Positions 5,530 through 48,311 of a DNA stretch of 64,000 nt are shown here, one piece after another; the first letter of the stretch is position 1; each line of letters begins with the position of its first letter. The stretch is taken from positions 3,729-67,728 of the forward strand of contig CAZFWM010000003.1 of NCBI GenBank assembly GCA_964522545.1, in the 5' to 3' direction. The position numbers were made by a program, and so were the translations under genes. The stretch comes from an uncultured Thermodesulfobacteriota bacterium. Its GTDB lineage: Bacteria > Desulfobacterota > DSWW01 > CAZFWM01. The notes beneath the pieces are model-generated. The model saw nothing but the letters and a program-made list of their open reading frames with translations. It ran no database searches and was not told where the DNA came from.

Positions 5530-7047
5530 ATGGGCGTGAAGGTGGGATTTGATAACGAGAAATACCTGACGGAACAGACGTCGGCCATCCTGGAGAGAGC
5601 GAAGCAGTTCAATAATAAATTGTACCTCGAGTTCGGCGGAAAGCTCCTCTTCGATTATCACGCATCGAGGGTCCTGCCGGGGTTTGCCCCCAATGTGAAA
5701 ATGAAACTTTTACAAAAATTAAAGGATAATGCCGATATTTTGCTCTGTATTTACGCAGGCGACATCGAAAGGAAAAAGATTAGGGCCGATTTCGGGATCA
5801 CCTATGATTCGGACGCCCTCAAGCTGATAGACGATTTAAGGGCCTGGGACATCGATGTGCTGGGGGTGGTCATAACCCGGTTTGAAGATCAGCCGTCGGC
5901 CAAGTTGTTCAAGACCCGGCTGGAACGCAGAAATGTAAAAGTCTACACGCACCACTACACGAAAGGCTATCCGACGGACGTGGATCTGATCGTGAGTGAT
6001 GAGGGCTACGGGGCCAATGATTTCATCGAGACCGATAAAAAACTGGTGGTTGTCACCGGCCCCGGTCCGGGCAGCGGCAAATTGGCCACATGCCTTTCCC
6101 AGCTGTATCATGATCATAAAAGGGGAACAGAGTCCGGCTACGCCAAGTTCGAAACCTTCCCGATATGGAATTTGCCGCTCAAGCATCCGGTAAATATGGC
6201 GTACGAGGCGGCCACGGCCGATATCAAGGATTTCAATCTGATCGATCCTTTTCACCTGGAGTCGTACGAAAAATCAGCCGTCAACTACAACCGCGACGTG
6301 GAGATATTTCCCGTATTGAAAAGAATACTGGAGAGAATTACCGGCGGCAGGACGCTCTACCAGTCTCCGACGGACATGGGGGTAAATCGGGCCGGGTTCG
6401 GGATTGTTGACGATGAGGTCGTCCGTGAGGCGGCGAAGCAGGAAATCATACGGAGATATTTCCGATACAGGTGTGAATATCTGATGGGGCTTGTAGACAA
6501 GGATACTATACAGAGGGTGGAGCGTCTTCTGGAGGAACTCAACGTCAAGCCGGAAGAGAGAAAGATTGTCGTGCCTGCGCGAGAAGCGGCGGTCGAAGCG
6601 GAGGAGAAGCAAAAAGGAAATGAGGGGATTTTTTGTGGCGCGGCGATCCAATTAGTAAACGGAACCATTGTGAATGGCAAGAATTCTCACCTCATGCATG
6701 CGGCATCGAGCCTCATCTTGAATGCCATCAAAGAGGCTGCCGATATACCCGACAAGATCCACCTGCTGTCGCCAAATATAATAGAGTCGATAGGATCTCT
6801 GAAAAAAAACACGTTGAACAAAAACTCGGTGAGTCTGGACCTGGAAGAGACTCTGATCGCTCTCAGTATAAGCGCGACGACCAACCCCACCGCCCAGCTG
6901 GCCATGGATAAATTGAAAGAGCTAAGAGGATGTGAGGTCCATATGACCCACATGCCCACGCCCGGTGACGAGACGGGCTTGAGAAGGCTGGGTGTGAATT
7001 TGACGACCGACCCCAATTTTTCCACCAAAAGTCTCTTTGTGTCCTGA
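5530..7047 (+). CDS. DUF1846 / UPF0371 family protein
   Basis: 505 aa. The N-terminus [10 protein letters not shown]...I..R......[19 protein letters not shown] is characteristic of UPF0371. RBS ggagggg. Confidence 0.75.
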
Positions 7048-7686: not shown

Positions 7687-8106
7687 CTAGCCGAGTTTTT
7701 CTTTTATCAGGTCCTGGGATTTTTTGTCTTTGCAGGCGATGAAGACGGTGTCGTCGCCGGCCACGGTGCCGACCAGCCCCTGTATATCTGTGTGATCGAG
7801 GGCCACGGCCACGCGTTGTGCGCCGCCGGGGGGTGTTTTCAGAACGAGCAGGTTCGGTCCGGCGGGCTGCATGTCGAGTATGAGTGGGAGCACTTCGGAC
7901 CATGAGGGGACGACTTCCCAGGCCGGGATGTAGCGGCCCCCCGCCTTGTAGAGGCCGAGAGCGGTAATGTCGCGGGAAACGGATGACTGGGTGACCTGGA
8001 AGTTTTCCTTTTTCAGCAGTTCGACCAGGGTCCTCTGGTCGGAGATCGGGTTTTTTCGAACCATCTCCAGTATTCGTCTTCTTCTGAGAGCGGTCTTCGA
8101 GTTCAT
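7687..8106 (-). CDS. argR: Arginine repressor ArgR
   Basis: Winged-helix N-terminus (RRRRILEMVRKNPISDQRTLVELL...VTQSSVSRDI) and a C-terminal GTVAGDDTVF motif. I chose the ATG at 8106 because it forms an ATGA overlap with the argH stop. The longer track ORF is an upstream extension. Confidence 0.9.
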   Translation of the reverse strand: MNSKTALRRRRILEMVRKNPISDQRTLVELLKKENFQVTQSSVSRDITALGLYKAGGRYIPAWEVVPSWSEVLPLILDMQPAGPNLLVLKTPPGGAQRVAVALDHTDIQGLVGTVAGDDTVFIACKDKKSQDLIKEKLG

Positions 8107-9476
8107 CGCTCTTCCCGTTGGTCTTCCCAAAGATTTTGCAGGGCGGTCTCGATGCGTTCGGCCCGCTCGGCCCATCGGTCGCCGATATCCTCGAGCTCAT
8201 CTGCCAGGCACTCCAGTCCCAGGTTCCCGGGTGCCCCGAGGCTGGATCTCTCCTTGATGAGGACGAGCGGATCTTCCGGCGAGAAATCCCTTCCCTCCGA
8301 GACCTGCCCGGCAACCTCGCGGTAGGCCTCTCTGAAGGGAGTGCCCCCTCTCACGCGGCGATACACTTCGTCCGTGGCAAAGAGCTCCCCTCGGCACGCG
8401 GCCCCGGCCCTCTGCTCGTCGACCTCCAGCCCCTCGACCAGCTTCGTGCAGATCTCCAGTCCCTGGGCGACCGTGTCCACGGCATCCATGCAGGGCCCTT
8501 TGAGGGTCTGCAGGTCCCGGTGATAGCCGGACGGGAGGGCCTGGACCGTGTTCGTCGCCTGCCCGAGGTAGCCAGCCACCTTTGCGGCCTTGGCCCGCAA
8601 TATCTCGAGTACGTCGGGGTTCTTTTTGTGGGGCATGATGGAGGAGCCGGTGGTGAAGGCATCGGGGATTTTTACAAAGCCCGTGAGCTCATCCGAGAAG
8701 GCGATCAGGTCCGCCGCGATCCGGGCGAGGTCCTGGGAATACATTGCGGTCACAGCCAGAAGGGCCACGGCATCCTTGCCGCGGCTCGCCTGGGTGGAGA
8801 GGACGTTGACCTGGAGGATGTCGAAGCCGAGGCGCTCGGCCGTCTCCTCTCGATCCAGCGGCAGGGGAACCCCGTAGCCCGCGCCCGCGCCAAGGGGACA
8901 TCGGTCCGCCATGGCAAAGGCCATCTCGGAGAAGCAGATCGACTCGAGCAGACCTTCCGCCTGGGCCCCGGCCCACAGGCCCCAGGTCGAGGGCATGGCC
9001 TGGCGGTGGTGGGTGTAGCCAGGAATCACGATCCCCTCCCCTTCTGCAGCCGCAGAGAGAAACAGGTCGGCCAGAGCGATGGCACGGTTCGCCAGGCAGA
9101 TCAGGGCGTCGCGCAAATAGAGCCGGATCATGGTGAGGGCCTGGTCGTTGCGCGAGCGCCCGGCATGGATAGTCTTACCGGTCTCTCCGGCCCGCGAGAC
9201 CAGGAACTCCTCCAGAGCGGTGTGGGCGTCCTCGGACTCGACGGTCACGGTCAGCTCTCCCGCCTCCCACGCGGTCTTCGCCTCCCAGAGGGCCGCCCGC
9301 AGGGCCTTGCGCTGCTCCCCGGTTATCACCCCCGCCTTGAAGATGGCCTCCAGGTGGGCCAGGCTGCCCATGATGTCGTAGATGAGCAGGGAGCTGTCCA
9401 GCACCGGGTCGTCGCCGGTGGTGAAGGCCAGCATGTCCGGATCGAGGGGCACGCCCTTTTCCCATAGCTTTGCCAT
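8103..9476 (-). CDS. argH: Argininosuccinate lyase
   Basis: 457 aa. Fumarate-lyase signature GSSIMPHKKNPD. N-terminus KLWEKG...D. Confidence 0.95.
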   Translation of the reverse strand: MAKLWEKGVPLDPDMLAFTTGDDPVLDSSLLIYDIMGSLAHLEAIFKAGVITGEQRKALRAALWEAKTAWEAGELTVTVESEDAHTALEEFLVSRAGETGKTIHAGRSRNDQALTMIRLYLRDALICLANRAIALADLFLSAAAEGEGIVIPGYTHHRQAMPSTWGLWAGAQAEGLLESICFSEMAFAMADRCPLGAGAGYGVPLPLDREETAERLGFDILQVNVLSTQASRGKDAVALLAVTAMYSQDLARIAADLIAFSDELTGFVKIPDAFTTGSSIMPHKKNPDVLEILRAKAAKVAGYLGQATNTVQALPSGYHRDLQTLKGPCMDAVDTVAQGLEICTKLVEGLEVDEQRAGAACRGELFATDEVYRRVRGGTPFREAYREVAGQVSEGRDFSPEDPLVLIKERSSLGAPGNLGLECLADELEDIGDRWAERAERIETALQNLWEDQREER

Positions 9477-9479
9477 GTC

Positions 9480-10544
9480 TCAGCCTCCGAGATAGTGTGT
9501 TGCGAGATGGGTGAACATTTCCACGGCCCGGGTCACTTCACCGACCTCGATGTATTCGTCGGGGCGGTGCGAGAGCAGCGGGTCGCCCGGGCCCATCTTC
9601 ACGGCCGGTAAATCGAGAAAGGCCCAGTCCGAAGCCGTGGGCGATCCGATGAGCTCTGCCCCGGGATTCGTCTGCACGGCGCTCCGGACGATCTCCTCGT
9701 TTTCATCCGTGGAGCAGGGCCGGTAGCGGCCGGAGTGGGGATGGATCTCCGAGCTCAGGGCCTTTTCCAGACGCCGAATCCACTCATCGTGAGAGCGGCT
9801 TGGAACGGTCCTGATGTCGATGGTGAACTCGCAAAGCTCAGGAATGATGTTGTGCGCGCTGCCCCCGCTGATCACGGTGGCCGCGGCCTTCGAAACGCCG
9901 AGAAAGGGATCCTCCGGGCCCGGGTCGATCTTTGAGAGGGCCAGGATGTCCGCGGCGGCCACTTCGATGGCGTTGACCGTGCCCTCTGGCCTGCCGGCGT
10001 GGCCGGTCTTTCCATTGGCCACGGCCGTGATCACCAGGAGGCCCCGCTGCCGAATACAGATCTCTAGCGAAGTGGGCTCTCCGACCACGGCCGCATCGAT
10101 CGGTCCGATGAGTTCGAGCAGATCTATCAAACCGCTCTTTCCCGTTTCTTCTCCGGAGGTAAGTGCAACTATGAGCCTGCCTGCCGGCGGCCGCATGCTC
10201 AATCCGCAGGCCGTGAATGCGGCGACACTCGCCTTGTCGTCGACTGCGCCCCGCCCGTAGAGCCTCCCTACCCTCTCCTCGGCGCCGAAGGGGTCCACGC
10301 TCCAGCCCTCTCCCGGCGCGACCGTGTCGATGTGGGCGGCCAGCAGCAGGGTCTTGCCCTGAGCGGCCCCCGCGCGTTCGAACCAGACGCTGTCGCCGCT
10401 CCTCTGCGGGGCGGCCCCGCGCTCCGAGAGGTAGTCGGACAGCCAGTCCGCGGCCGCTCGCTCCTCGCCGGAGACGCTCGGAAGGTGGATCAGCGATCGA
10501 AGCAGATCTACGGCGTCACAGTTCGGTTTCATTGATTCCTTCAC
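9480..10544 (-). CDS. argE: M20-family deacylase (ArgE/DapE type). The operon context suggests an acetylornithine or acetylcitrulline deacetylase.
   Basis: LIHLPSVSGEE, HIDTV, GRGAVDDK and SGEE metal-ligand motifs. It sits between argB and argH. The substrate is not determinable by eye. Confidence 0.7.
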   Translation of the reverse strand: MKESMKPNCDAVDLLRSLIHLPSVSGEERAAADWLSDYLSERGAAPQRSGDSVWFERAGAAQGKTLLLAAHIDTVAPGEGWSVDPFGAEERVGRLYGRGAVDDKASVAAFTACGLSMRPPAGRLIVALTSGEETGKSGLIDLLELIGPIDAAVVGEPTSLEICIRQRGLLVITAVANGKTGHAGRPEGTVNAIEVAAADILALSKIDPGPEDPFLGVSKAAATVISGGSAHNIIPELCEFTIDIRTVPSRSHDEWIRRLEKALSSEIHPHSGRYRPCSTDENEEIVRSAVQTNPGAELIGSPTASDWAFLDLPAVKMGPGDPLLSHRPDEYIEVGEVTRAVEMFTHLATHYLGG

Positions 10545-11427
10545 GGCGCGAGACGATCATGGTGCCGCTCCCCCGGTTGGTGAAGATCTCGCCCAGCAGG
10601 GCATCGGGCTTGGTGCCGTGGACCATGTGGGCCCGATCCACACCGCCGGTTACGGCCTTCACGCAGGCCTCCACCTTTGGAAGCATGCCTCCCTTGATGC
10701 CCCCCGCGCCGATCATCTCGTCGATGTCGGAGGGATCGGCGTAAGAGACCAGGGAGGAGGGATCGCCGGGATCTCTCAGCAGGCCGGGCACGTCCACCAG
10801 GTAGATCAGCTTGCCTGCCCCGAGCTCTACGGCAAGGGTCATCGAAAAAGTGTCGGCGTTCACATTGAGGGGCGATTCGTCCGGGTCCCCGGCAACGCAC
10901 GCCAGGACCGGTGTGTACCCGCCGTCGAGCATGTGGCGGATGAGGCCGGGGTCGATCGCCTCGACATCCCCGACCAGGCCGAAGTCCACGGTCTTTTCCC
11001 GGCCGTCCTCCTGGTCGACCAAGGTCACGGGGGGGCGCCGTGCGGCCGAGACGGTGGAGCCATCGAGACCGGTCAGGCCGACTGCGGCCAGGCCGTGCCG
11101 GGAGAGTGCGGACACAAGGTCCATGTTCAGCCTGCCTGCCACCACCATGATGAGGGCCTCCAGGGAAGCCTCATCGGTGATCCGGCGGCCGTTGACCTTG
11201 CGGATCTCGCCGCCCCGCTCTCGGATCAGGCTGTCCACCTGGGGGCCGCCGCCGTGGACGAGCACCGGGAGGATGCCCACGTGATAGAGCACGGCCACCT
11301 GCTCCGCGATCCGGTCGAGTGCTTCGGGCATGAACATCTCTCCGCCTAGCTTGATCACGAACACGGCACGCTGGTACCGGCGGATGTACGGAAGAGCGCT
11401 GCGCAGCTGCAAGATCGAGTCGTTCAT
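10516..11427 (-). CDS. argB: Acetylglutamate kinase
   Basis: FVIKLGG, VLVHGGGPQ, NVNAD and GGMLPK motifs. The ATG at 11427 forms an ATGA overlap with the argF' stop. 303 aa with no fused GNAT domain. Confidence 0.93.
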   Translation of the reverse strand: MNDSILQLRSALPYIRRYQRAVFVIKLGGEMFMPEALDRIAEQVAVLYHVGILPVLVHGGGPQVDSLIRERGGEIRKVNGRRITDEASLEALIMVVAGRLNMDLVSALSRHGLAAVGLTGLDGSTVSAARRPPVTLVDQEDGREKTVDFGLVGDVEAIDPGLIRHMLDGGYTPVLACVAGDPDESPLNVNADTFSMTLAVELGAGKLIYLVDVPGLLRDPGDPSSLVSYADPSDIDEMIGAGGIKGGMLPKVEACVKAVTGGVDRAHMVHGTKPDALLGEIFTNRGSGTMIVSRREGINETEL

Positions 11428-12419
11428 TTCTTGCCTCCCTTTAACAACATCTCTAGTAAAGCCATCTGGGCCCAGATTCGGTTCACCGCCTGCCCGGTGA
11501 CCGCATTCTGAGGGCCGTCGAGCACGCCGTCCGTGACCACCACATTCCTGCGGACCGGCAGGCAATGCATGAAGATGGCCGACTCGCTCTTCTCCATTCT
11601 CTCTTCATTTACGATCCAGTCGCTGAGTGACGGCGGTGTGAGCTGGCCGTAGTTGGAGACGGGGCTCCACGATTTGGCATAGACCGCTCGCTGGCCGCTG
11701 AAGGCCGCATCCGGGTCGTGGACGATCCGAAGCCGTCCACCGCGGCTATCCGCCAGCGCCCCCATCTCCTCCTGAAAGGCGGGGTCCATGTCGTAGCCTT
11801 CCGGGAAGGCGAGGGTGACGGAGAGCCCGAAGGAGGCCGCGGCGTGCAAGGCGCTTCGAGGCACGGCCTGGGGAAGGGGCTTCGGGTGATAGGCCCAGGT
11901 CAGCAGAAACGGGTCACCCGGGGAGCTCAGGCCGTGCTCTTTCAACGTCAGCATGTCCGCAAGCTCCTGGCAGGGGTGTGCGAGCGGTGATTCCAGATTG
12001 ACCACGGGGCAGGGTGCCTCGCGCGAGAAGATGGAGAGAAGCTCCTGCCTCCGGTCCTCCTCGAAATCCTCCATGGCCGGAAACGCACGGAGGCCGAGGG
12101 CGTCGAAATAGTTTCCCAGCACCCGTGCCTGTTCCTTGACGTGCTCGGCCTTGTCCCCGTCCATCACGGCCCCCTCGGCGGTCTCCACGGACCAGGCGCC
12201 CTTGCCCGGCTCGATCGTGACCGGCGTGATGCCGAGCTTGGCGCAGGCGATGTCGAAGGAGGCCCGCGTGCGGAGCGAAGGATTGAAATAGACGGACCCG
12301 AAGGTCTTCCTGCCGAGGTCGGCAGGGGCGGCCCCGGCCTTCAGGTCCGCGGCCCGCGCAAGAAGCCCCAGGATCTCTTCTTGAGAAAATACCGAGAGGT
12401 CTACAACGTCGCGTTTCAT
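11424..12419 (-). CDS. argF': N-acetyl (or N-succinyl) ornithine carbamoyltransferase, the Xanthomonas/Bacteroides-type ArgF'
   Basis: FNPSLRTRASF, PGKGAWSVE....VMDGD..EH, HPCQELAD, LTWAYHPKPL, VYAKSW (in place of the canonical D.W.SMG loop) and HCLPVRRN. Confidence 0.75.
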   Translation of the reverse strand: MKRDVVDLSVFSQEEILGLLARAADLKAGAAPADLGRKTFGSVYFNPSLRTRASFDIACAKLGITPVTIEPGKGAWSVETAEGAVMDGDKAEHVKEQARVLGNYFDALGLRAFPAMEDFEEDRRQELLSIFSREAPCPVVNLESPLAHPCQELADMLTLKEHGLSSPGDPFLLTWAYHPKPLPQAVPRSALHAAASFGLSVTLAFPEGYDMDPAFQEEMGALADSRGGRLRIVHDPDAAFSGQRAVYAKSWSPVSNYGQLTPPSLSDWIVNEERMEKSESAIFMHCLPVRRNVVVTDGVLDGPQNAVTGQAVNRIWAQMALLEMLLKGGKK

Positions 12420-12440
12420 GATTTCCTTCCTTGTTCGGCC

Positions 12441-12603
12441 TTCCCTCGTTCCGAGGCTCCGCCTCTTTTCCTCGTTCCGAGGCTCCGCCTCGGAACGGGC
12501 TCTATAGGGCCACTGCCCCGTCCGGCCAATATGTGTATTGTCCTCAATTATGGGAGGCGGAGCCTCCCGGATTGCGATCCCAGGAAGAGCCTGGGATCGA
12601 GGT
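12441..12603. repeat. Intercistronic repeat cluster between argF' and argD
   Basis: Direct duplication of CCTCGTTCCGAGGCTCCGCCTC (12444-12465 and 12470-12491). Also the hairpin GTTCCGAGG..CCTCGGAAC, the inverted partner GGGAGGCGGAGCCTCCC (12552-12568), and the hairpin GATCCCAGG-aagag-CCTGGGATC. Confidence 0.75.
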
Positions 12604-12628
12604 AGAGAACTATTGAATAGGCTCCCTA

Positions 12629-13774
12629 TTATTTTTTCAGTACGTCCCCTAGCTCTCCGGCAAATTTCTCCAGCTCTTGATGAGTGACGATCAGCGGCGG
12701 GGTGAGTCGGATGACTTTTTCATCAAAGGCGCTTCCCACCAGAATGCCTCTGTTTCTCAGCTCGAGGATCACAGGCCCGGCCTTTTCCTCCAGAACGATG
12801 CCGAGCAGCAAGCCCGCACCCTGGACGCGGACCACCCCGGGCAGACCACGCAGGAGCTCTCGAAGGAAGCGCTCGCAGTCTGATGCGTTCTGCGCCAGGT
12901 CCTCTTCGGCCACCACATCCAGGGTGGCCAGGGCCGCGGCACATGCAAGGGGACCTCCTCCGAAGGTTGTGCCCAGGTCCCCCGGCTTTACCTTCCCGGC
13001 AATATCTTCGTTGACCAGCAACGCCGAAATCGGAAATCCCGAGCCGAGACCCTTGGCCAATGTGATCATATCGGGGGTTACGCCGTACCTGGAGACACCG
13101 GTGAAAGCGCCGAGCCTGCCGACGCCGGTCTGGACTTCGTCCAAGACGAGCATGGCGCCCACGGCGCGCGTGAGCTCGGCCGCGGCGGTCCAGAATCCGT
13201 CCGGCGGAGACAGCGCGCCCGCCAGGCCCTGCACAGGCTCCCCGATCACCGCGGCCACCTCCGGAGAGAGGGCCGTCGCGAGGGCCTCAGCGCTGCCGAA
13301 GGGGAGGATCTCCACATCGGCCACCAGGGGGCGGCCGTCGACCACGGTCCTGGCGCGGTGCTTTTCCAATCCGCAGGCCGAAAGGACGCCGAGGGTTCTG
13401 CCGTGGAACCCACCGGCAAAGGCGATGATCTTTCGCCTTCCTGTGATCATCCGCGCCAGGGCGAGGGCGGCTTCGTTCGCCTCTGCCCCGGAATTGATGA
13501 AAAAAGCGGCGGCCGCGCCCGGCACGGCCTCGGTGAGCCTTTCGGTAAGCTCGCGCCGCACCTGAAAATCGACCATGTTCGAGTAAAAGAGGATCTTGTC
13601 GCACTGGTTCTTGATCGCCTCCATCACTTTAGGGTGGCAGTGACCGGTGCTCGCGACCGCGTGCCCGGCATAGAGGTCCAGGTAGCGCCGGCCCTCGCTG
13701 TCGGTCACGTAGCATCCCGAGCCGGACACCAGCTCGATCCCCCAACGCGAGTAAACGGTAAGCTCATGTTCCAC
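12629..13774 (-). CDS. argD: Acetylornithine aminotransferase (class III PLP)
   Basis: 381 aa. GHCHP, FF.NSGAEANE, DEVQTG.GR.G and TLAKGLG (PLP lysine). Confidence 0.9.
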   Translation of the reverse strand: MEHELTVYSRWGIELVSGSGCYVTDSEGRRYLDLYAGHAVASTGHCHPKVMEAIKNQCDKILFYSNMVDFQVRRELTERLTEAVPGAAAAFFINSGAEANEAALALARMITGRRKIIAFAGGFHGRTLGVLSACGLEKHRARTVVDGRPLVADVEILPFGSAEALATALSPEVAAVIGEPVQGLAGALSPPDGFWTAAAELTRAVGAMLVLDEVQTGVGRLGAFTGVSRYGVTPDMITLAKGLGSGFPISALLVNEDIAGKVKPGDLGTTFGGGPLACAAALATLDVVAEEDLAQNASDCERFLRELLRGLPGVVRVQGAGLLLGIVLEEKAGPVILELRNRGILVGSAFDEKVIRLTPPLIVTHQELEKFAGELGDVLKK

Positions 13775-13830
13775 TGATATAGCCTTTCTGTGACAACAAT
13801 GCTTTAGCTAAACGCTATGAGAAGAAAAAT

Positions 13831-13950
13831 TCTGAGGAACCCAGGAACCCAGGAAAAGAGAAAAAAGTATTGTAATCGTTGAGACCCAAATGGACTCGTT
13901 ATAGCATCCTTCTCATTTTTTCCTTTCTTGGGTTCCTGGGTTCCTCAGAG
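13831..13950. repeat. Family B palindrome, copy B1 (arms CTGAGGAACCCAGGAACCCAGG)
   Basis: Arms at 13831-13853 and 13927-13950. It lies between argC and argD. Confidence 0.85.
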
Positions 13951-13993
13951 GTATAATTACTATGCTTCCAGCTCGAAAATACAATCACAGACA

Positions 13994-15028
13994 CTAATAC
14001 GGATTGAACCCGACCGCCTTGAGCCCGGCCGTTTCTTCGAGGCCGAGGGCCAGATTCATTGCCTGGACCGCCTGGCCCGAGGCCCCCTTCACCAGATTAT
14101 CCAGAGCCGACATGAGAATGAGCTCCCCTTCCGAGACCGAGTGCCCGACGAGCGAGTGGTTCGTGCCCAGCACCGGGGTCAGGTTCGGTGATCCCTTCAC
14201 AAGGTGTATGAACGGATTTTCCTCGGCCCAGGCCTGCAGGGCCCCGGCCACGCGACGACCGTCCCAGTCCAGGGTCAGCTTCGTGTGCAGGGTCGTGAAG
14301 ATGCCGCGCACAAAGGGGCCGGAGTGTGTGATCAGCCTGTACCTGTTATTTTCACCCATACGATCGAGCTGCTGCCGGACCTCGGGCTCGTGCTGATGGG
14401 TGAAGATCTTGTAGGCGCACACATTGACGTTGCGCCGCGGGTGGTGGGTGCCCGGAATGGGCTGGGCGCCGGATCCGGACGACCCGGTCACCGCAAACGA
14501 TACGATCGGCCCGGCAATGGCGCCGGTCCCGGCCAGGGCCGAGAGCGCGACCAGGCTCCCCGTTGCGAAACACCCCGGGCAGCAGAGCCGACGCGCTCCC
14601 TGAATGGCGGCCCTGTTCGCCTCCGGAAATGCATACGTGAAGGTGGGAGTGAGGTCGAAGGCGAGGTGCTCACCGTAGTAATGCGCGTGGGTCCCCTGGT
14701 CCGTCAGCCTGAAATCCCCGGCCAGGTCTATGAACAAGACATCCGGGGCGGCCCGGAACACCCAAGGGGCGGCCGCAGAGCTCTCGCCGTGGGGGAGGCA
14801 GCTGAACACCACGTCCGCACCCGAGGCCGATTCCTCGGGCCCTCCTCCCAGGAGCTTCCGCTCTTCCCCGATGAGATTCGGGTGGGCCTCGGACCATGGT
14901 CTTCCGGGGGCGGACCGGCTGTAGGCCCGGATCGAGTCCACGGCCGGATGGGCCCGCAGGATCCTCAGAAGCTCCCCGCCCGTGTAGCCGGCGGCACCCA
15001 GGACTGCTACATCTACGGTCTTTTCCAC
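13994..15028 (-). CDS. argC: N-acetyl-gamma-glutamyl-phosphate reductase
   Basis: VLGAAGYTGGELLR N-terminus and the active-site block CCPGCFATG. Confidence 0.92.
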   Translation of the reverse strand: MEKTVDVAVLGAAGYTGGELLRILRAHPAVDSIRAYSRSAPGRPWSEAHPNLIGEERKLLGGGPEESASGADVVFSCLPHGESSAAAPWVFRAAPDVLFIDLAGDFRLTDQGTHAHYYGEHLAFDLTPTFTYAFPEANRAAIQGARRLCCPGCFATGSLVALSALAGTGAIAGPIVSFAVTGSSGSGAQPIPGTHHPRRNVNVCAYKIFTHQHEPEVRQQLDRMGENNRYRLITHSGPFVRGIFTTLHTKLTLDWDGRRVAGALQAWAEENPFIHLVKGSPNLTPVLGTNHSLVGHSVSEGELILMSALDNLVKGASGQAVQAMNLALGLEETAGLKAVGFNPY

Positions 15029-16074
15029 GACTTCACCTTTCCGATAAGGAACTCACTCAGTTCGCCCGGGTCCTGGAATGCGTTGATGGCCGGGAGATCG
15101 AGGATTTCCCGGATCTGTGCTCGGCCGACTTCGTTGTCCGTGACGGGCCCGGATATCACCGAGATCGTCTGAGAGAATCGGTCTTGAAAGAGGAGGGCAG
15201 CCCCGTAGGCACCGACCGGATCGGCCGCGCAGAGCACATGGGCCGCCGCCAGGGACATGAGCCGCCCCTCTTCGAGGATTTCGGCCACTCCGTACTGCCC
15301 AAGGAGGCCGTCGCCGAGCTCGGCCACGATCACGTCCGGTTTCTCCTTGATCAGCTTATCGATGATACCCATGGAGATCGCCGGCGCATCGGTCGAGTCC
15401 GTGACCGGGGCGCCCGCGTCGGTGAAATCGAAGGCCGCCATGGCGCCCGCATCGGTCATGGTCGCCGTATCCCTCATGAGCGAAACACCGGTGAGCTTGC
15501 AGGCCGCCACTGCCAGGCGGGAGCGGACGAGCTCGCGGATGATCTCGCATGCGGCCGTGGTCTTTCCCGAGTTCATGGAGGTGCCGCTTATGTAGATGAC
15601 CGGGGCGTGGCCCGAAAGCCTGTCTGCCGCCTTGATCGGCCCGCTAAGGATGTGGGCGGGCACGCCGACCCTCGCCTCCATGGAGGGGAAGGCGAGCACA
15701 GCGCCGAGCACTTCGACGTCGAAGGGCCGCCCCAGCTTGGGGTGGAAGGCGGTGCACGCGCCGCAGACCCCGCCCATGTTGAGGATCTGCAGGGTGTCGC
15801 CGGCCCGGACCGTCTCGGGGACGACCCCGGCGAATCCCTGCGAAGCGGAGCGCGATCCCAGGGTGACGGCCAGGACGTCGTCCCTGCGCACCTTCACGAA
15901 CCGTCCCGTGAGGATCTCCACGTGGTCGTAAGTGACCTTGTCGTTGAGGACCTTGACCGCCAGCACATAGCCGGGTCTGGCCGTGATCTCATAGCCGATC
16001 GTGACATTCCGGGTGATGCCTGCGTGCCGGGTCGAGCTCGTTACTTTGTCGAGGTGCAGTACAGAGGTGATCAT
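15013..16074 (-). CDS. Uncharacterised protein: an unrecognised N-terminal domain of about 150 aa plus a P-loop domain (DTBS/CobQ/MinD-like or DUF1611-like)
   Basis: 353 aa. Walker-A-like GTSMNSGKT (aa 164-172) and DVIVAELGDG (aa 247-256). It has an ATGA overlap with the argG stop (16071-16074) and a 16-nt overlap with the argC start. Confidence 0.6.
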   Translation of the reverse strand: MITSVLHLDKVTSSTRHAGITRNVTIGYEITARPGYVLAVKVLNDKVTYDHVEILTGRFVKVRRDDVLAVTLGSRSASQGFAGVVPETVRAGDTLQILNMGGVCGACTAFHPKLGRPFDVEVLGAVLAFPSMEARVGVPAHILSGPIKAADRLSGHAPVIYISGTSMNSGKTTAACEIIRELVRSRLAVAACKLTGVSLMRDTATMTDAGAMAAFDFTDAGAPVTDSTDAPAISMGIIDKLIKEKPDVIVAELGDGLLGQYGVAEILEEGRLMSLAAAHVLCAADPVGAYGAALLFQDRFSQTISVISGPVTDNEVGRAQIREILDLPAINAFQDPGELSEFLIGKVKSWKRP

Positions 16075-17306
16075 TCCTTACTCCTTCCCTGGGCCCTACT
16101 CCTTTCACCGGCGGTCCTGTGGAGCAGCGACGGGATGGAGAGCAGGGTCGAAAAGCCCCTGGCGTCGCGGCCGTCCCAGAGCGAATTCTCCTCTCCGTAC
16201 CGGGCGATATCTTCGTTGATCAGGCTGTGAGGGCTCTGGACGCCGACGACCGAGAAGCGGCCCGGCTCGAGTCGCACGCGGACCCGGCCGGTGACTCTCT
16301 GCTGACTGGATGCCAGTAGGGCCTCGATGTCCCGCAGGGCCGGCTCGAAGTAGAGCCCCTCGTGGACCCACTTGCCGTACCAGGCGGCGAGCTGGTCCTT
16401 GATGAGCATCTGGTTTCCGGTGAGCACCAGTTTTTCCAGCTCCCGGTGGGCGGAGACGACCATGAGCGGGCCGGGCGCCTCGAAGGCGATGCGTCCCTTG
16501 ATCCCGAGCACCGTGTCGCCCAGGTGGATTCCGCGGCCGACGCGCCACTTGCGCCCGATCCGATTCAGGCGGCGCAGGGATTCTACCCCGCCCATCCCCT
16601 CTACCCCGCCAACCCCCTCGGACTCGATGGAGACCGGGAGTCCCTCTTCAAAGCCGATGCTGATTTCGCCTGCCCCTTGAGGCTCAGGGCCGACGTCGAA
16701 GGAGGCAAAGGCATCCTCGTCCGGGCCGGTCCATGGGTCGTGGGTCCATCCTCCTCCGAGAGTGGTCCCCCAGATGCCCTCGTTGACCGATAGGTCGAGC
16801 CGCTGTTCCTCGACGGCATGGCCGCGCTCTTTGAGATATTCGATCTCGCGGCCGCGGGTCCAGCCCTCGTCGCGCACGGGGGCGATGATTTTGAGCGAGG
16901 GGGCGATGACCTGGAAGGCGACGTCGAAGCGCACCCCGTCGTTGCCCGCTCCGGTAGCCCCGTGAGCGACCGCCTCGGCGTTCAGGGCGATCGCCTGCTC
17001 CGCCACCTTGCCGGCCTGGATCGTCCTCTCCGCGGCCACACACAGGGGGTAGATTCCCCCCTTGAGCACGTTGCCCCGGATCAGGTGGCTCAGGTAGTCG
17101 TCAAAGAGCTCGTCCACGGCGTCGATGGTTATGTGCTGCACGGCCCCGAGCGACAGGGCCCGCTCCTCAATGGCGGCGAGGTCTTCGCTGTTGAAGCCCC
17201 CGGTGTTCACCGTTGCCGTCACCACGTCGGTCTGGTATTTTTCGGAGAGATAGGGCACAAGGAATGAAGTGTCCAGGCCGCCCGAAAAGGCGAGCACGAT
17301 TTTCAT
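16071..17306 (-). CDS. argG: Argininosuccinate synthase
   Basis: MKIVLAFSGGLDTS N-terminus, with GGAGGAACAACC immediately before the ATG at 17306. The track ORF carries a 16-codon upstream extension. Confidence 0.95.
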   Translation of the reverse strand: MKIVLAFSGGLDTSFLVPYLSEKYQTDVVTATVNTGGFNSEDLAAIEERALSLGAVQHITIDAVDELFDDYLSHLIRGNVLKGGIYPLCVAAERTIQAGKVAEQAIALNAEAVAHGATGAGNDGVRFDVAFQVIAPSLKIIAPVRDEGWTRGREIEYLKERGHAVEEQRLDLSVNEGIWGTTLGGGWTHDPWTGPDEDAFASFDVGPEPQGAGEISIGFEEGLPVSIESEGVGGVEGMGGVESLRRLNRIGRKWRVGRGIHLGDTVLGIKGRIAFEAPGPLMVVSAHRELEKLVLTGNQMLIKDQLAAWYGKWVHEGLYFEPALRDIEALLASSQQRVTGRVRVRLEPGRFSVVGVQSPHSLINEDIARYGEENSLWDGRDARGFSTLLSIPSLLHRTAGERSRAQGRSKE

Positions 17307-17325
17307 GGTTGTTCCTCCAATCATT

Positions 17326-17383
17326 CGATGCATATTTATGCAAAAATTATGCATATAATGCCACTAATGAAAAATGTTGTCAA
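17326..17383 (-). promoter_or_regulatory. argG operon promoter with tandem ARG-box-like operators
   Basis: Minus strand: TTGACA (17383-17378), 17 nt, then CATTAT (17360-17355). This is followed by and overlaps the palindromes TGCATAAATATGCA (17342-17329) and ATGCATAAT-type half-sites, about 20 nt upstream of the SD of argG. Confidence 0.6.
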
Positions 17384-17602: not shown

Positions 17603-17631
17603 CCCTATCCGATTAAAAGGACGAATAAAAG

Positions 17632-18969
17632 ATGACAACATCTGAAAGCGAGGTCTATGAAGCAGGCCCTGACGGGGTGATGCGGCTGGCCGGCCACGAT
17701 GTCCGAACCCTGCTGAACCGGTTCGGCAGCCCCCTGGTGGTCATGCTGGAGGAGGTGATCCGAGCAAACTGCCGCGCCTACATGCAGGAAATGCAGAAAT
17801 ATCCGCGCTTCAGGATTTACTATGCGGCCAAGGCGTTCCTGACCACAGGCTTCTGCAGCCTGATCGAGGAAGAGGGGCTGGGGCTCGACGTGGTCTCGGC
17901 GGGCGAGCTCTTCACCGCCCTGGAGGCCGGGTTCCCGCCTGAGAGGATCCTTTTTCACGGCAATGCAAAGACCCGCGACGAGCACGCCATGGCCCTGCGC
18001 GCCGGCGTGGGACGGATCGTGATCGACAACCTGGACGAGATCGGCCGGCTGGCCGGGGTCGCCGAAGAGCTCGACTGCCGCGCCGACGTTCTGATCCGGG
18101 TGACGCCTGGAGTAAAGCCCCACACCCACCGCTACGTTCAGACCGGTCAGGTGGACTCCAAGTTCGGCTTCAACCTAGAGGGCGGCGCGGCCGAGGAAGC
18201 GGTGCGGCGGGTCCTGTCGAGTGAGCAGCTCGAGCTGGTCGGGCTACACTGTCACATAGGATCCCAGATCTTCGCCATCAAGCCCTTCGCCATAGCGGCC
18301 AGGGCCATGATGGAGTTCTACGCCCATGCCAAGAAGGACCTGGGCGCCCCCCTCGACGAGCTCAATCTGGGGGGAGGGCTCGGTGTCCGGTACACGCCGG
18401 ACGACTATCCCCCCTCGGTAGAGGAGCACCTGTCCGCCATGCGGTCGGCCGTCCTGGAGGCGGCCGGGGAGATGGGCGTCGAGCCCCCGGTGCTCTGCGA
18501 TGAGCCTGGCAGATCGATCGTGGGCCGGGCCGGAGTGACCCTCTACACCGTCCAGAGCGTAAAGAGGATCGAGGGGCTTCGCAACTACGTGAGCGTGGAC
18601 GGCGGAATGACCGACAACCCGCGCTACGCCCTCTACGGCGCCCGTCACCAGGTGGTCGCCGCGGACCGACTCGACGAGCCGGCCCCTATGCTCTGGTCCG
18701 TCTCCGGCCGCTGCTGCGAGTCGGGCGACATGCTCCAGAGCGACGTCCCCCTGCCCGAGATGAAGTCCGGGGACATCCTGGCCGTGCTCTCCACCGGCGC
18801 GTACACCTATAGCATGGCGAGCCACTACAACCGGGTTCCGAAGCCGGCCGTGGTCCTCGTGGCGTCCGGCCGGGCCGATCTCCTGGCGGCCCGGGAAAGT
18901 ATCGAGGACCTGATCCGGCTGGACCGGATCCCCGGCCGGGCGGAGCGGTCGGGACAAGGAGACGCTTAA
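17632..18969 (+). CDS. lysA: Diaminopimelate decarboxylase
   Basis: 445 aa. YAAKAF (PLP lysine region), HCHIGSQ, GGGLGV, CESGD and GAY..SMAS.YN. Confidence 0.92.
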   Translation: MTTSESEVYEAGPDGVMRLAGHDVRTLLNRFGSPLVVMLEEVIRANCRAYMQEMQKYPRFRIYYAAKAFLTTGFCSLIEEEGLGLDVVSAGELFTALEAGFPPERILFHGNAKTRDEHAMALRAGVGRIVIDNLDEIGRLAGVAEELDCRADVLIRVTPGVKPHTHRYVQTGQVDSKFGFNLEGGAAEEAVRRVLSSEQLELVGLHCHIGSQIFAIKPFAIAARAMMEFYAHAKKDLGAPLDELNLGGGLGVRYTPDDYPPSVEEHLSAMRSAVLEAAGEMGVEPPVLCDEPGRSIVGRAGVTLYTVQSVKRIEGLRNYVSVDGGMTDNPRYALYGARHQVVAADRLDEPAPMLWSVSGRCCESGDMLQSDVPLPEMKSGDILAVLSTGAYTYSMASHYNRVPKPAVVLVASGRADLLAARESIEDLIRLDRIPGRAERSGQGDA

Positions 18970-22110: not shown

Positions 22111-23889
22111 GTGCGAGAGAAAGGTGTCCGTATAGTGGGAAATAAACCTCCCATACGAATCAAGCCATCCCCCTTCCTGAAGGGCATAGCCCCCTACCGG
22201 GTACCCACGGCCGGCGCCCCCGTGGACCTGTGCCTGGACGCCAACGAAGGGGCCGTCCCGCCCGTCGGCGTGGTCCGGGCACTGGACCCGATCTCGCCCG
22301 GGGTGGTGCGGTCCTACCCGGACGCCCGCCCACTCGAAGAGTTGCTCGCGGGCCGGCTTGGCCTCGAGCCCGACCGCGTCCTGGTCACGGCCGGCGGCGA
22401 TGATGCCATCAACCGGCTCTGTCGGGCCGTGCTCTTCCCGGGGCGGGAGATGATCATCCCGGTGCCGACCTTCACGATGATCCACCACTTCGGCGCCCTG
22501 GCAGGTGCCACGGTGGTGACGGTGCCGTGGGCCGAGAGTGCTTACCCGGTCGAAGAGGTCGAGCGGGCCGTGGGGCCGGACACGGCGGTGATCACCGTGG
22601 TGAGCCCCAACAATCCCACCGGCGCCGTGATCGGGGCCGAGGACCTCGAGCGGCTCTCCCTGGCCGCGCCCGAAGCCGTGCTGCTGTGCGATTTTGCCTA
22701 TGTCGAATTCGCCGATGAGGATCTCACGGACCGGGCGCTGGGCCTGTCCAACGCAGTCGTGGTCAGGACCCTCTCCAAGGCGTACGGGCTCGCCGGACTG
22801 CGGGTGGGGTATGCCCTGGGTCCCGCGGAGATTATCGAGTGGATGCGCACCGCCGGCGGCCCTTACGGAGTTGCCAGGCCTTCCCTGGCCCTGGCCGAGG
22901 CGAGGCTGCGTGAGGGCGAGTCCGATGTGACCGCCTACATCCGGAAGGTGAAGGGGGAGCGTGGGAGGCTGGAGGACCAGTTGACCCGGCTGGGCGCCAG
23001 GGTGGAGCCTTCGCAGGGGAATTTTGTCTTTGCGCGGGTCACCGACGCCCTTTGGGCCCGGGACGCCCTGGCCGGGCAGGGCATCGCGGTGCGGGCCTTC
23101 CCGGGCGCCCCAGGGCTCGCCGACGCCCTTCGAATCACCTGTCCCGGCAACGAGAGGGATTTCGACCGTTTATGCGAGGCCCTCGCCACGGCTCTCAGGC
23201 CCGAGGCGCTGCTTTTCGATATGGACGGCGTGCTGGCCGACGTCTCGCAGTCGTACCGGCAGGCCATCCTCGCCACGGCCGAGAGCTACGGCGTGACCCT
23301 GCGGACGGCCGAGGTGACGGCGGCCAAGATAGCCGGCAAGTCCAACAACGACTGGCACCTCACCCGGCGTCTGCTGGCCGAGCGAGGAGTCGACGCCCCT
23401 CTGGACGAGGTGACCCGGCGCTTCGAGGTCCTGTATCAGGGAACGCCCGAGGCGCCCGGCCTGCGCGCAAAAGAGCGGCTGCTAATCGAAAAAGAGGTGC
23501 TCACGGCCCTTGCCTCGAAGGTGAAGCTCGGCGTGGTGACAGGCCGGCCCCGCAGCGATGCCGAGCGGTTTTTGAGGGAGAAGGGCATCGAGGAGCTCAT
23601 CCCGGCCGTGGTCTGCATGGAAGATGCACCGCTCAAGCCGAGCCCCGATCCGGTCAGGCTCGCCATGGAGCGCCTCGGCGTAAGATATGCCTGGATGGTG
23701 GGCGACACGGCCGACGACGTGGCCGCGGCCAGGGCCGCGGGCGTGGTGCCCCTGGGTGTAGTGGCGCCGGGCGACGAGGTCCAAAACATGTCCCAAAACA
23801 CGTCCGAAGACGCGGCCGAAAAACTAACCGCCGCCGGAGCAGCCCGAGTGCTCCGGCAGGCATCCGACGTGGAGGATCTGCTGCCATGA
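22111..23889 (+). CDS. hisC: Histidinol-phosphate aminotransferase fused to a C-terminal HAD-IA-type phosphatase domain
   Basis: N-terminal class-II aminotransferase (NEG..PP, SPNNPTG, RTLSKAYGLAGLRVGY). The C-terminal roughly 220 aa carry HAD motifs DMDGVL, VVTGR, LKPSPDP and GDTADD. The start is uncertain (GTG at 22111 or GTG at 22135). Confidence 0.85.
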   Translation: MREKGVRIVGNKPPIRIKPSPFLKGIAPYRVPTAGAPVDLCLDANEGAVPPVGVVRALDPISPGVVRSYPDARPLEELLAGRLGLEPDRVLVTAGGDDAINRLCRAVLFPGREMIIPVPTFTMIHHFGALAGATVVTVPWAESAYPVEEVERAVGPDTAVITVVSPNNPTGAVIGAEDLERLSLAAPEAVLLCDFAYVEFADEDLTDRALGLSNAVVVRTLSKAYGLAGLRVGYALGPAEIIEWMRTAGGPYGVARPSLALAEARLREGESDVTAYIRKVKGERGRLEDQLTRLGARVEPSQGNFVFARVTDALWARDALAGQGIAVRAFPGAPGLADALRITCPGNERDFDRLCEALATALRPEALLFDMDGVLADVSQSYRQAILATAESYGVTLRTAEVTAAKIAGKSNNDWHLTRRLLAERGVDAPLDEVTRRFEVLYQGTPEAPGLRAKERLLIEKEVLTALASKVKLGVVTGRPRSDAERFLREKGIEELIPAVVCMEDAPLKPSPDPVRLAMERLGVRYAWMVGDTADDVAAARAAGVVPLGVVAPGDEVQNMSQNTSEDAAEKLTAAGAARVLRQASDVEDLLP

Positions 23890-30528: not shown

Positions 30529-32277
30529 ATGACAAAGACCCTGGTTGAGACAAAAAGCATTCGACTCGAGCTCCCTGAGGGCGGGCTACGGCTCGAGCTG
30601 GGGGGAGTGCTCAAGCAGGTCGACGTCGCCTATGAGGCCTACGGCACTCTCGCGCCCGACCGGTCGAATGTCGTCTACGTCTGTCACGCCCTGACCGGGG
30701 ACGCCCACGCCGCTTTCTACCACACCGAGGAAGATGCCCAGCCGGGGTGGTGGGATTCCCTGATCGGCCCCGGCAGGGCCCTGGACACCGACAAGTTCTA
30801 CGTCGTCTGCTCGAATATACTGGGCGGCTGCAAGGGCACCACCGGGCCCGGCTCCATCGACCCGGACACGGGCCACCCCTATGGAGTGACCTTTCCCCAC
30901 ATCACGATTCGGGACGCGGTGCGGGTCGAAAAGATGCTGCTCGAGCAGCTCGGCATTCCCGAAGTCTACGGCGTGATCGGCTCCTCCATGGGCGGCATGC
31001 GCGCCCTCGAGTGGAGCGTCCGGTACCCGGACTATGTTCGTCGCTGCATCTGCATCTCCGCCGCCGTCAGCCTGTCGCCCCAGGCCCTGGCCTTCGATAT
31101 CATCGGCCGCCAGGAGATCGAGTCGGACGGGCAGTGGCACGGCGGCGATTACTACGGCCGGCCGGAGAAGCCGGACAAGGGGCTCTCCCTTGCGCGTCAG
31201 CTCGGGCACATCACCTACCTCTCCTCGGAGCTGATGCTCCAGAAGTTCGGCCGCGAGATGCACGACAGGCAGCCCCCCGCGGACGGCGACATGTTCAGCA
31301 CCAACTTTCAGATCGAGTCGTATCTACGCTATCAGGGCTGGAAGTTCGTCGACCGGTTCGATGCGAACTCCTACCTCTACATCAGCCGGATGATGGACCT
31401 GTACGACCTGGAGGAGGAGTTCGGCGGCATGGAGCGGATCTTCGAGGGCGTTTCCGCCGATTTCCTGGTCGTGTCCGTGCGCTCGGACTGGCTGTTTCCA
31501 CCGTCCCAGCAGCTGGACATCGTGAAGGCCCTGCTCGCCAACCGCAAGAGGGTGAGCTATTTCCAGATCGACTCGACCTTCGGGCACGACGCGTTTCTAC
31601 TGGAGATCGACACCCTCACACAGGGCGTCCGGGCATTTCTCAACGGGAAGACGCCTCAGCGTTCATACGAGAGCAAGCCCCTGCCCGACCTGGATAGCAT
31701 CAGCAGGAAGATCGTCGAGAAGACTCATGTCTTGGACGTGGGCAGCGGGGACGGAAGCCTCATGCTGGCCCTGCAGAGCAGGAAAGGGATCACAGGCATC
31801 TGCCTGGACCTCAACTTCGAAAAAATCGTGGCCTGCATGGCCAAGGGCCTTCCGGTGCTTCAGATCGATGCCGATACGGGCCTCGGCATCATCCCGGAGA
31901 ACGCGTTTGACTGTATCCTTCTCAACCAGACGATCCAGCAGCTCCACAGCGCACTCCAGACCGTAAAGCAGATGCTGCGCATCGCCCAAAACTGCGTGAT
32001 CGGATTTCCCAACTTTGCATACTATGTTTACCGCTGGTCCCTGGGCATCCTGGGCAGGCTTCCGGTGTCGGAGACCCTCCCGTTCCAGTGGTACAACACA
32101 CCCAACATACACCTGGCCACGCTGAAAGACTTTCGTGAGCTCTGCAGGAAGAGCAACATCGATATCGAGACGATAGAGTATATCTCCGACAGTGCTCTCG
32201 GCAGGCTCTTTATCACCCTGGGCCTGCCCGACCTGGGCGCAGAGCGAGTGCTGACCAGGATTTCGGCTGCGGATTGA
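30529..32277 (+). CDS. metXW: Homoserine O-acetyltransferase (MetX) fused to a MetW domain
   Basis: N-terminal alpha/beta hydrolase (HALTGD, GSSMGGM, DWLFP, GHDAFL). C-terminal VLDVGSGDG...FPNFAYY..R......GR.P....LP..WYNTPNIH matches MetW. Confidence 0.85.
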   Translation: MTKTLVETKSIRLELPEGGLRLELGGVLKQVDVAYEAYGTLAPDRSNVVYVCHALTGDAHAAFYHTEEDAQPGWWDSLIGPGRALDTDKFYVVCSNILGGCKGTTGPGSIDPDTGHPYGVTFPHITIRDAVRVEKMLLEQLGIPEVYGVIGSSMGGMRALEWSVRYPDYVRRCICISAAVSLSPQALAFDIIGRQEIESDGQWHGGDYYGRPEKPDKGLSLARQLGHITYLSSELMLQKFGREMHDRQPPADGDMFSTNFQIESYLRYQGWKFVDRFDANSYLYISRMMDLYDLEEEFGGMERIFEGVSADFLVVSVRSDWLFPPSQQLDIVKALLANRKRVSYFQIDSTFGHDAFLLEIDTLTQGVRAFLNGKTPQRSYESKPLPDLDSISRKIVEKTHVLDVGSGDGSLMLALQSRKGITGICLDLNFEKIVACMAKGLPVLQIDADTGLGIIPENAFDCILLNQTIQQLHSALQTVKQMLRIAQNCVIGFPNFAYYVYRWSLGILGRLPVSETLPFQWYNTPNIHLATLKDFRELCRKSNIDIETIEYISDSALGRLFITLGLPDLGAERVLTRISAAD

Positions 32278-48072: not shown

Positions 48073-48096
48073 AGCACAGGACCGGCGTTTCATGTT

Positions 48097-48274: not shown

Positions 48275-48311
48275 ATCTTTTCGGTTGCGGCTCGGCCGCG
48301 TTGGGATCCAG

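Follow-up and report, generated by a model that had tools for sequence, protein, structure and literature searches.

The genes examined here lie on a 64,000-nucleotide stretch of DNA, hereafter called the window, from an uncultured Thermodesulfobacteriota bacterium (NCBI GenBank assembly GCA_964522545.1, contig CAZFWM010000003.1, positions 3,729 to 67,728 of the forward strand; all coordinates below are those of the window). Its minus strand carries an arginine biosynthesis operon in the order argG-X-argC-argD-argF'-argB-M20 deacylase-argH-argR, in which X denotes an unnamed open reading frame (ORF) and a candidate for the first enzyme of the pathway. The members of the operon, as assigned by Pfam and NCBIfam scans, are the following:

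16071..17354, minus strand: argG, argininosuccinate synthase (PF00764/PF20979; TIGR00032 at 282 bits, above its cutoff)
15013..16074, minus strand: X, unnamed ORF of 353 amino acids (aa) with an ATG start, defined by ORF and translation
13994..15028, minus strand: argC (TIGR01850 at 299 bits against a cutoff of 233)
12629..13774, minus strand: argD, N-acylornithine aminotransferase (PF00202; NCBIfam argD-type models)
11424..12419, minus strand: argF', acylornithine carbamoyltransferase (NF003384 at 362 bits; succinyl-type signature A91/P183/V294)
10516..11565, minus strand: argB, N-acylglutamate kinase without a GNAT domain (TIGR00761 at 207 bits against a cutoff of 151, domain at aa 69-313)
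9480..10544, minus strand: deacylase of the M20 ArgE/DapE family, predicted N-succinylcitrulline desuccinylase (PF01546/PF07687; TIGR01910 below its cutoff)
8103..9476, minus strand: argH, argininosuccinate lyase (TIGR00838 at 295 bits, above its cutoff)
7687..8175, minus strand: argR, arginine repressor, the final gene of the cluster, downstream of argH (PF01316 and PF02863)

X has the hallmarks of a translated member of this operon. Its GC content at third codon positions (0.84) is in line with coding sequence of the window, which has 60% GC, and an AGGAG stands 6 nucleotides (nt) before its ATG. The tetranucleotide ATGA is common to the start of X and the stop of argG, giving a 4-nt overlap, while the 3' end of X overlaps the GTG start of argC by 16 nt, that start being the putative one that opens the longest ORF. 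X is translationally coupled to its arg neighbors. A first-pass annotation, made from the sequence without database searches, had described the ORF with both overlaps, had placed the motifs GTSMNSGKT and DVIVAELGDG in its C-terminal half, and had recognized nothing in its N-terminal half; the re-derived coordinates agree throughout, and neither Pfam nor NCBIfam gave a match to the N-terminal half.

Every dedicated step of the pathway except the first is encoded in the operon. The same annotation had reported that argA and argJ are missing and that argB is not of the fused ArgA/B type, and the domain scans bear this out: Pfam and NCBIfam found no argA, argJ or GNAT gene in the operon, and the product of argB is a kinase only. 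The listed TTG start of the longest argB ORF overlaps argF' by 142 nt, and the kinase domain does not start until about aa 68, so that the real argB start probably lies further downstream. Two gaps of about 210-220 bp, at 12420-12628 (argF'/argD) and 13775-13993 (argD/argC), interrupt the otherwise overlapping genes, and the corresponding gaps are mostly much shorter in relatives.

Most of the sizeable ORFs in the window were scanned with Pfam, and this revealed a single ORF with a GNAT domain in the 64 kb, at 59013-59669 on the minus strand (218 aa), beside a gene for an AsnA-type asparagine synthetase. It was rejected as a hidden N-acetylglutamate synthase (NAGS), given its generic GNAT matches of 15-31 bits (Acetyltransf_7, 31 bits), the lack of a match to any NAGS model, and its distance of about 43 kb from the operon. 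A regular expression for the self-cleavage region of ArgJ matched nothing in the window and 83 related loci (1.48 Mb in total), which is weak evidence. A route through a LysW-type carrier was likewise set aside, as argB scores as a standard argB and the operons of relatives are packed too tightly for an extra small gene. Upstream of argG, a 174-aa ORF at 17605-18129 on the minus strand was considered as argR and rejected; it has no family match and a low GC3, and it shadows a plus-strand gene of the Orn/DAP-decarboxylase type at 17632-18969.

X belongs to a large family. An exhaustive search (E<=1e-3) returned 1257 clusters of relatives at 50% identity, the most distant of which over the full length are about 28% identical to X, and the scored candidates included at least 1889 homologues, each of them called a hypothetical protein. 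Relatives are encoded in no fewer than 509 GTDB species genomes; most of these carry the label Gemmatimonadota, and the others are labelled Myxococcota, Acidobacteriota/Thermoanaerobaculia, Planctomycetota and Bdellovibrionales. The family also holds a large clade that NCBI names Steroidobacteraceae (the clade of P0127 and P0283).

Profile searches against curated families gave little. The only Pfam match of X, to DUF1611 (PF07755), covers just 52 residues (aa 155-207) and scores 16.4 bits (E 0.0062), short of the gathering cutoff of 25; relatives score 18-21 bits. No NCBIfam family matched X at E<=0.01, Pfam and NCBIfam found no GNAT, amino-acid-kinase or ArgJ domain in it, and AAA_26 and CbiA gave no match in X and a sub-threshold match in one relative. 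No family of known, unrelated function was matched in these searches. From the pattern of its P-loop, X had been linked to the group of dethiobiotin synthetase (DTBS), CobQ and MinD and to DUF1611, the family of the D-glutamate N-acetyltransferase DgcN. The part of that proposal that stands is a likeness at the level of the fold; X is not a DUF1611 member by any test applied, since it stays below the cutoff, has no sequence match to the DgcN structure (PDB 7XRJ), and carries a different N-terminal domain.

The fold was approached with an AlphaFold2 model built on a 42-sequence alignment (pLDDT 93.7, pTM 0.91), which was compared with the PDB by Foldseek. The model comprises two domains with the following features:

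15619..16074, minus strand: N-terminal all-beta domain (aa 1 to about 152; pLDDT 89.9 when modelled alone)
15013..15612, minus strand: C-terminal alpha/beta P-loop domain of the SIMIBI class, dethiobiotin-synthetase-like by Foldseek (aa about 155 to 353)
15559..15585, minus strand: Walker-A-like loop GTSMNSGKT (aa 164-172), aligned to the DTBS P-loop GTDTEVGKT
15496..15498, minus strand: Lys193, invariant in the family and aligned with Lys37 of DTBS
15307..15336, minus strand: Walker-B-like strand DVIVAELGDG (aa 247-256) with the invariant Glu252

Matches of the whole model were confined to the C-terminal domain. The top match was a dethiobiotin synthetase (3of5_B, E 2.4e-6, TMt 0.59), with two further structures of that enzyme, 1dae and 1dts, also among the best, and HypB and the NG domains of SRP54/FtsY followed. 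DgcN (7XRJ) stood at rank 48, with E 1.6e-4 and a root-mean-square deviation (rmsd) of 5.0 over 226 columns; at the sequence level it was not matched at E<=10 by the single X sequence or by the 42-sequence profile. The only match of that profile to PDB sequences was the DTBS P-loop, at E 1.2 over 33 residues, in which the GTxxxxGKT loops coincide and K193 falls on Lys37. Foldseek found no relative of the N-terminal domain in the PDB, 7XRJ included (best E 0.96, TM <0.3). An uncharacterized protein, 2qtp, was matched by phmmer to aa 24-151 at E 0.023, which neither the 42-sequence profile nor Foldseek reproduced, and we regard that match as chance. The model therefore predicts two fused domains, a novel beta domain and a P-loop domain of the SIMIBI class that resembles dethiobiotin synthetase.

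Conservation is pronounced in both halves. Among 76 diverse representatives, reaching down to 28% identity, G170-K171-T172, K193, D202, D219, E252 and D285 in the C-terminal half and E53 and R75 in the N-terminal half are at least 90% conserved. Among closer relatives D9, S13, K46, Y49, R58 and D66 of the N-terminal domain are invariant, and C107 is nearly so in the 42-sequence alignment. The conserved columns of that alignment include neither the NKxD guanine-specificity motif nor a metal-binding Cys/His cluster.

The genomic neighborhood of X is conserved far beyond this genome. Eighty-three loci were retrieved through homologues about 45-55% identical to X, and the arg proteins of the window were mapped onto them with tblastn. 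They come from Gemmatimonadota, Myxococcota, Acidobacteriota, Planctomycetota and metagenome-assembled genomes labelled Bdellovibrionales, and argC lies directly downstream of X on the same strand in every one (83/83). Two operon orders occur: that of the window, and a Myxococcota order, X-argC-argD-argB-M20-argR-argG-argH, in which X comes first and no carbamoyltransferase gene is found nearby. Genes in these operons lie so close together that an additional acyltransferase gene would not fit. The window has an M20 deacylase, as does each fetched locus that extends far enough to include one, and X is not a substitute for ArgE because it co-occurs with this deacylase. One locus has an extra ORF between argD and argF' (L011, 13305-14078) that is not a GNAT and by eye resembles an alpha/beta hydrolase, and another shows a gap of similar size between the same two genes on the tblastn map (L018, about 13243-14061).

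The linkage holds among distant relatives as well, four of whose five contexts (28-41% identity) are arg clusters. At 28-31% identity the arrangements are argG-X-argH-M20-unknown-ornithine carbamoyltransferase (OTCase)-carA-carB (locus L084), argG-X-argF' (L089) and argG-argF'-X-argC (L090); the Steroidobacteraceae clade, at 41% identity, has argR-argG-X-argC-argD-argF'-argB-argH and no M20 gene. Almost throughout this very deep family, X is syntenic with arg genes. The unknown gene of L084, between M20 and OTCase (11728-12876, plus strand, 382 aa), has no NCBIfam match, has no Pfam match on record and is unlike the arg proteins of the window; it may be another arginine-pathway gene.

One relative of 626 aa (P0186), seen in two independent metagenomes, carries X and an ArgB-like amino-acid kinase in a single ORF, with a linker of about 50 residues between them. 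This fusion gene (L086 8001-9881, L087 6077-7957) stands alone, divergent from an arginase-fold gene and outside any arg operon, and its called start, a TTG, may be truncated. The merged argR+argG, X+argC (P0250, 687 aa) and OTCase+kinase genes of another contig (L088, ERZ25039555:contig_55462) suggest frameshift errors, and the fusions of this contig are untrustworthy; its X+ArgC protein probably arose artificially, through frameshifts in the assembly or through the gene calling, and was not used as evidence.

A clue to the acyl group came from ArgF'. The carbamoyltransferase of the window was aligned to the N-acetylornithine carbamoyltransferase (AOTCase) of Xanthomonas (X. campestris) and to its E92A/S and K302A mutant structures. 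Three positions, in the numbering of that enzyme, separate AOTCase from N-succinylornithine carbamoyltransferase (SOTCase) (PMC4581275), and the E92A, S, V and P mutants have been reported to switch AOTCase to succinylornithine. The residues compare as follows:

Position 92: Glu in AOTCase; A/S/P/V/Q in SOTCase; Ala91 in ArgF' of the window
Position 185: Asn in AOTCase; P in SOTCase; Pro183 in ArgF' of the window
Position 302: Lys in AOTCase; V/I/E in SOTCase; Val294 in ArgF' of the window

Because ArgF' carries SOTCase residues at all three positions, the prediction for the window is a pathway of N-succinylated intermediates, like that of Bacteroides. The X-linked ArgF' proteins in the fetched loci agree without exception (63/63), with V/T/I/A, then P, then E/V/I at the three positions; position 92 is V in 59, T in two, I in one and A in one, and is never acidic. 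The argF' genes of L089, L090 and L091 encode the same SOTCase kind, while the remote clade of L084 has a canonical OTCase instead. The acyl donor had been left as acetyl-CoA or succinyl-CoA in the first-pass annotation; the ArgF' residues favor the succinyl half of that pair and disfavor the acetyl half. NCBIfam NF003384 calls ArgF' an N-acetylornithine carbamoyltransferase, above its cutoff, despite A91/P183/V294, and this name is probably wrong for the ArgF' of the window and of related genomes, judging by these residues.

The hypothesis that this family performs the first step is not new, as it was already put forward in the GapMind 2026 preprint for ACG33_RS14135 (A0A127FCT3) of Steroidobacter, a protein predicted there, and only predicted, to make N-succinylglutamate. 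The grounds given were that its homologues are almost always in arg operons and, in the genome set of that preprint, never share a genome with ArgA homologues, that Foldseek gave a remote match to 7XRJ (rmsd 5.6, E 1.4e-7), and that linked ArgF' proteins carry A/P/S/V at position 92; Steroidobacter was described as lacking ArgE as well. P0327, a 'hypothetical protein [Steroidobacteraceae bacterium]', shares 43% identity with X over 338 aa (E 3e-83), and X matches P0127 of the same clade at E 1.9e-69. Since the operon of this clade lacks argE, as the preprint describes, X belongs with high probability to the family of ACG33_RS14135 in another lineage, the link running through Steroidobacteraceae relatives rather than A0A127FCT3 itself. 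Both are hypothetical proteins with no family assignment, encoded in operons with argB, C, D, F', (E), G, H and R, both match 7XRJ remotely by Foldseek, and both are linked to an ArgF' without Glu at position 92; the operon of the window differs in having an M20 deacylase, and X comes from a different, non-proteobacterial clade.

Other known systems resemble X in part. DgcN (7XRJ; DUF1611, in which PF07755 is accompanied by a further N-terminal domain) shares a SIMIBI-like P-loop domain and acylates the alpha-amine of glutamate; however, it is a D-glutamate N-acetyltransferase, whereas X would act on L-glutamate with a succinyl group in a biosynthetic rather than catabolic role, and the all-beta N-terminal domain of X is different and has no PDB match. 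The GNAT-type N-acyl-glutamate synthases BT3761 (Bacteroidota) and Cabys_1732 (Caldithrix) share with X the predicted reaction, a pathway of succinylated intermediates with an ArgF' of the SOTCase type, and a similar arrangement of the operon, but a GNAT has a fold unrelated to a beta domain with a P-loop domain, so that X would represent a non-orthologous displacement. Classical ArgA/NAGS (amino-acid kinase plus GNAT) and ArgJ (ornithine acetyltransferase) occupy the same position in the pathway and have no sequence or fold relation to X, although the fusion of X to an ArgB-like kinase echoes the kinase-plus-transferase architecture of NAGS. BioD, the best structural match of the C-terminal domain, has in common with X the GTxxxxGKT loop, a downstream Lys (K37/K193) and an acidic Walker B residue; it differs in lacking the N-terminal beta domain, in acting in biotin synthesis and in closing a ureido ring rather than forming an amide, and its sequence match is not significant.

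Taken together, we judge it probable, at roughly three in four, that X supplies the first step of arginine synthesis by forming N-succinyl-L-glutamate, whichever the acyl donor. The argument is that the operon is otherwise complete and the linkage near-universal and deep, that the ArgB fusion echoes the kinase-plus-acyltransferase build of classical NAGS, and that the fold resembles the only known P-loop acylator of glutamate. The first-pass proposal of a non-canonical glutamate N-acylating enzyme is thereby strengthened, by synteny, the ArgB-like fusion, operon content and fold likeness to DgcN as well as by the independent preprint. As to the form of the enzyme, we lean mildly towards a succinyl-CoA-dependent L-glutamate N-succinyltransferase. 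X would then N-acylate L-glutamate, most likely with a succinyl group, and N-succinyl-L-glutamate would be processed by ArgB, ArgC, ArgD, the succinylornithine carbamoyltransferase ArgF' and the M20 desuccinylase. By analogy with DgcN, the C-terminal P-loop domain may bind the nucleotide or phosphate part of succinyl-CoA, and acidic and basic residues of the N-terminal domain (E53 and R75, and in closer relatives K46, R58 and D66) may hold glutamate at the domain interface.

Several points weigh against this interpretation. The catalytic role of X, like that of the whole family, is a prediction, and X reaches no curated family at threshold. DTBS, HypB and SRP GTPases fit its fold better than DgcN does, and the sequence search of the PDB yields the DTBS P-loop and not DgcN. 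A full Mg-NTP apparatus (K171/T172, K193, D202 and E252) is invariant, although an enzyme that only transfers acyl groups from CoA has no obvious need of it. The choice of succinyl as the acyl group depends on a published residue rule, and the absence of argA, argJ and a BT3761-like GNAT holds for the 64 kb of this genome covered by the window.

The fold matches and the Mg-NTP apparatus bear most directly on the possibility that X catalyzes the same step, with the same product, as a CoA-independent, ATP-dependent ligase of succinate (or acetate) and L-glutamate of the DTBS/CobQ type. Free succinate would be phosphorylated and the alpha-amine of glutamate would attack the acyl phosphate, so that succinate released by the M20 desuccinylase could be recycled without CoA. 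Enzymes of this fold class, among them BioD, CobB/CobQ, CTP synthase and PurA, phosphorylate a carbonyl or carboxyl oxygen before nitrogen attack; the best fold matches of X (3of5, 1dae, 1dts) are ATP-using enzymes, the sole sequence-level PDB match places its GTxxxxGKT loop and K193 on the P-loop and Lys37 of one of them, and the Walker A K/T, K193, D202, E252 and D285 are retained at the depth given above. We nevertheless consider such a ligase unlikely, if well worth weighing, since conservation of a P-loop does not by itself tell ATP from CoA binding and DgcN, the only characterized P-loop enzyme acting on the glutamate amine, is described as an N-acetyltransferase (PDB 7XRJ title). Should it hold, an outcome about which we are equally doubtful, X would be an ATP-dependent succinate:L-glutamate ligase, catalyzing a reaction new to the dethiobiotin-synthetase-like P-loop class, whose N-terminal substrate-binding domain has a fold unseen in the PDB, and a functional analogue of the ArgJ acetyl cycle. 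It is more improbable that X makes N-acetylglutamate from acetyl-CoA, as DgcN uses an acetyl group, and feeds a pathway of acetylated intermediates: the NCBIfam name of ArgF' (NF003384, 362 bits) would fit, and the L084 clade, which pairs X with a canonical OTCase, offers no ArgF' clue, but the ArgF' of the window has A/P/V where acetyl-specific enzymes have E92/N185/K302, and none of the 63 linked proteins is acidic at position 92.

Roles outside the first step appear less probable again. X could be a non-catalytic accessory NTPase, whether a metallochaperone for the M20 deacylase in the manner of the G3E GTPases HypB, UreG and CobW, a scaffold or a regulator, and HypB and SRP-type GTPases are indeed among its best fold matches. 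That likeness is confined to the fold, as X has neither NKxD nor a Cys/His motif among its conserved columns; furthermore, the Steroidobacteraceae-type operon retains X without an M20 gene, the fusion partner of X is an ArgB-like kinase and not a deacylase, and the first step would be left without a candidate while the preprint reports anti-correlation with ArgA. An accessory or regulatory role, which the first-pass annotation had offered beside an enzymatic one, is thus the less favored of the two and seems to us improbable. Least probable of all, and very much so, is that X replaces another missing function, either the ArgE deacylase or carbamoyl phosphate supply, by DTBS-like CO2/carbamate chemistry. 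DTBS handles carbamate and ATP, carAB is not in the operon of the window, and Steroidobacter is reported without ArgE; X is however no substitute for the deacylase or for carAB, because it coexists with M20, both in the window and in each fetched locus of sufficient length, and in one clade (L084) with carA and carB, and Myxococcota-type operons have X without a nearby carbamoyltransferase gene.

The operon is part of an unusually dense amino-acid biosynthesis supercluster (7687-50477), which also contains a lysA-like decarboxylase, aspartokinase, hisG, a hisC-like gene, hisH, hisA/F, hisD, citrate synthase, metX-metW, pheA, ilvD, ilvB, ilvC, leuA, leuC, leuD, leuB, a second HMGL-like (cimA/leuA-type) synthase and a split glutamate synthase. 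In the hisC-like position, a 592-aa protein (22111-23889, plus strand) combines a class I/II aminotransferase domain (aa 54-358) with a HAD hydrolase domain (aa 365-547) and may, by its domains, be a fused histidinol-phosphate aminotransferase and histidinol phosphatase. At 30529-32277 (plus strand, 582 aa) an alpha/beta-hydrolase (MetX-like) domain is fused to a MetW domain, the two usually being neighboring genes. The glutamate synthase (45479-50477, plus strand) is in separate pieces, an archaeal-type arrangement, consisting of GATase_2, Glu_synthase/FMN, and GXGXG with pyridine-nucleotide oxidoreductase and 4Fe-4S domains. Just past argR, a 505-aa DUF1846 protein (568 bits) is encoded at 5530-7047 on the plus strand.

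Metabolic reconstructions from genomes repeatedly leave a gap at the first step of arginine synthesis. To the published prediction the present analysis adds how large and how deep the family is, its conserved anatomy of two domains, the N-terminal one having no known fold, the fusion of X to an ArgB-like kinase, all three succinyl positions of ArgF', and remote clades with a canonical OTCase and carAB; moreover, the fully conserved NTP-binding apparatus gives real weight to the question whether the acyl donor is succinyl-CoA or succinate with ATP. Were X to act as a ligase, arginine synthesis in much of Gemmatimonadota, Myxococcota, Acidobacteriota, Planctomycetota and Steroidobacteraceae would begin with a never-described chemistry. 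If X supplies the first step as proposed, the gap would close across several phyla for hundreds of species, most of them uncultured (a minimum of 509 species genomes and of 1257 clusters at 50% identity), the succinylated arginine pathway would extend well beyond Bacteroidota, and the family would represent a third solution to glutamate N-acylation, neither GNAT nor ArgJ, and a clear case of non-orthologous displacement.

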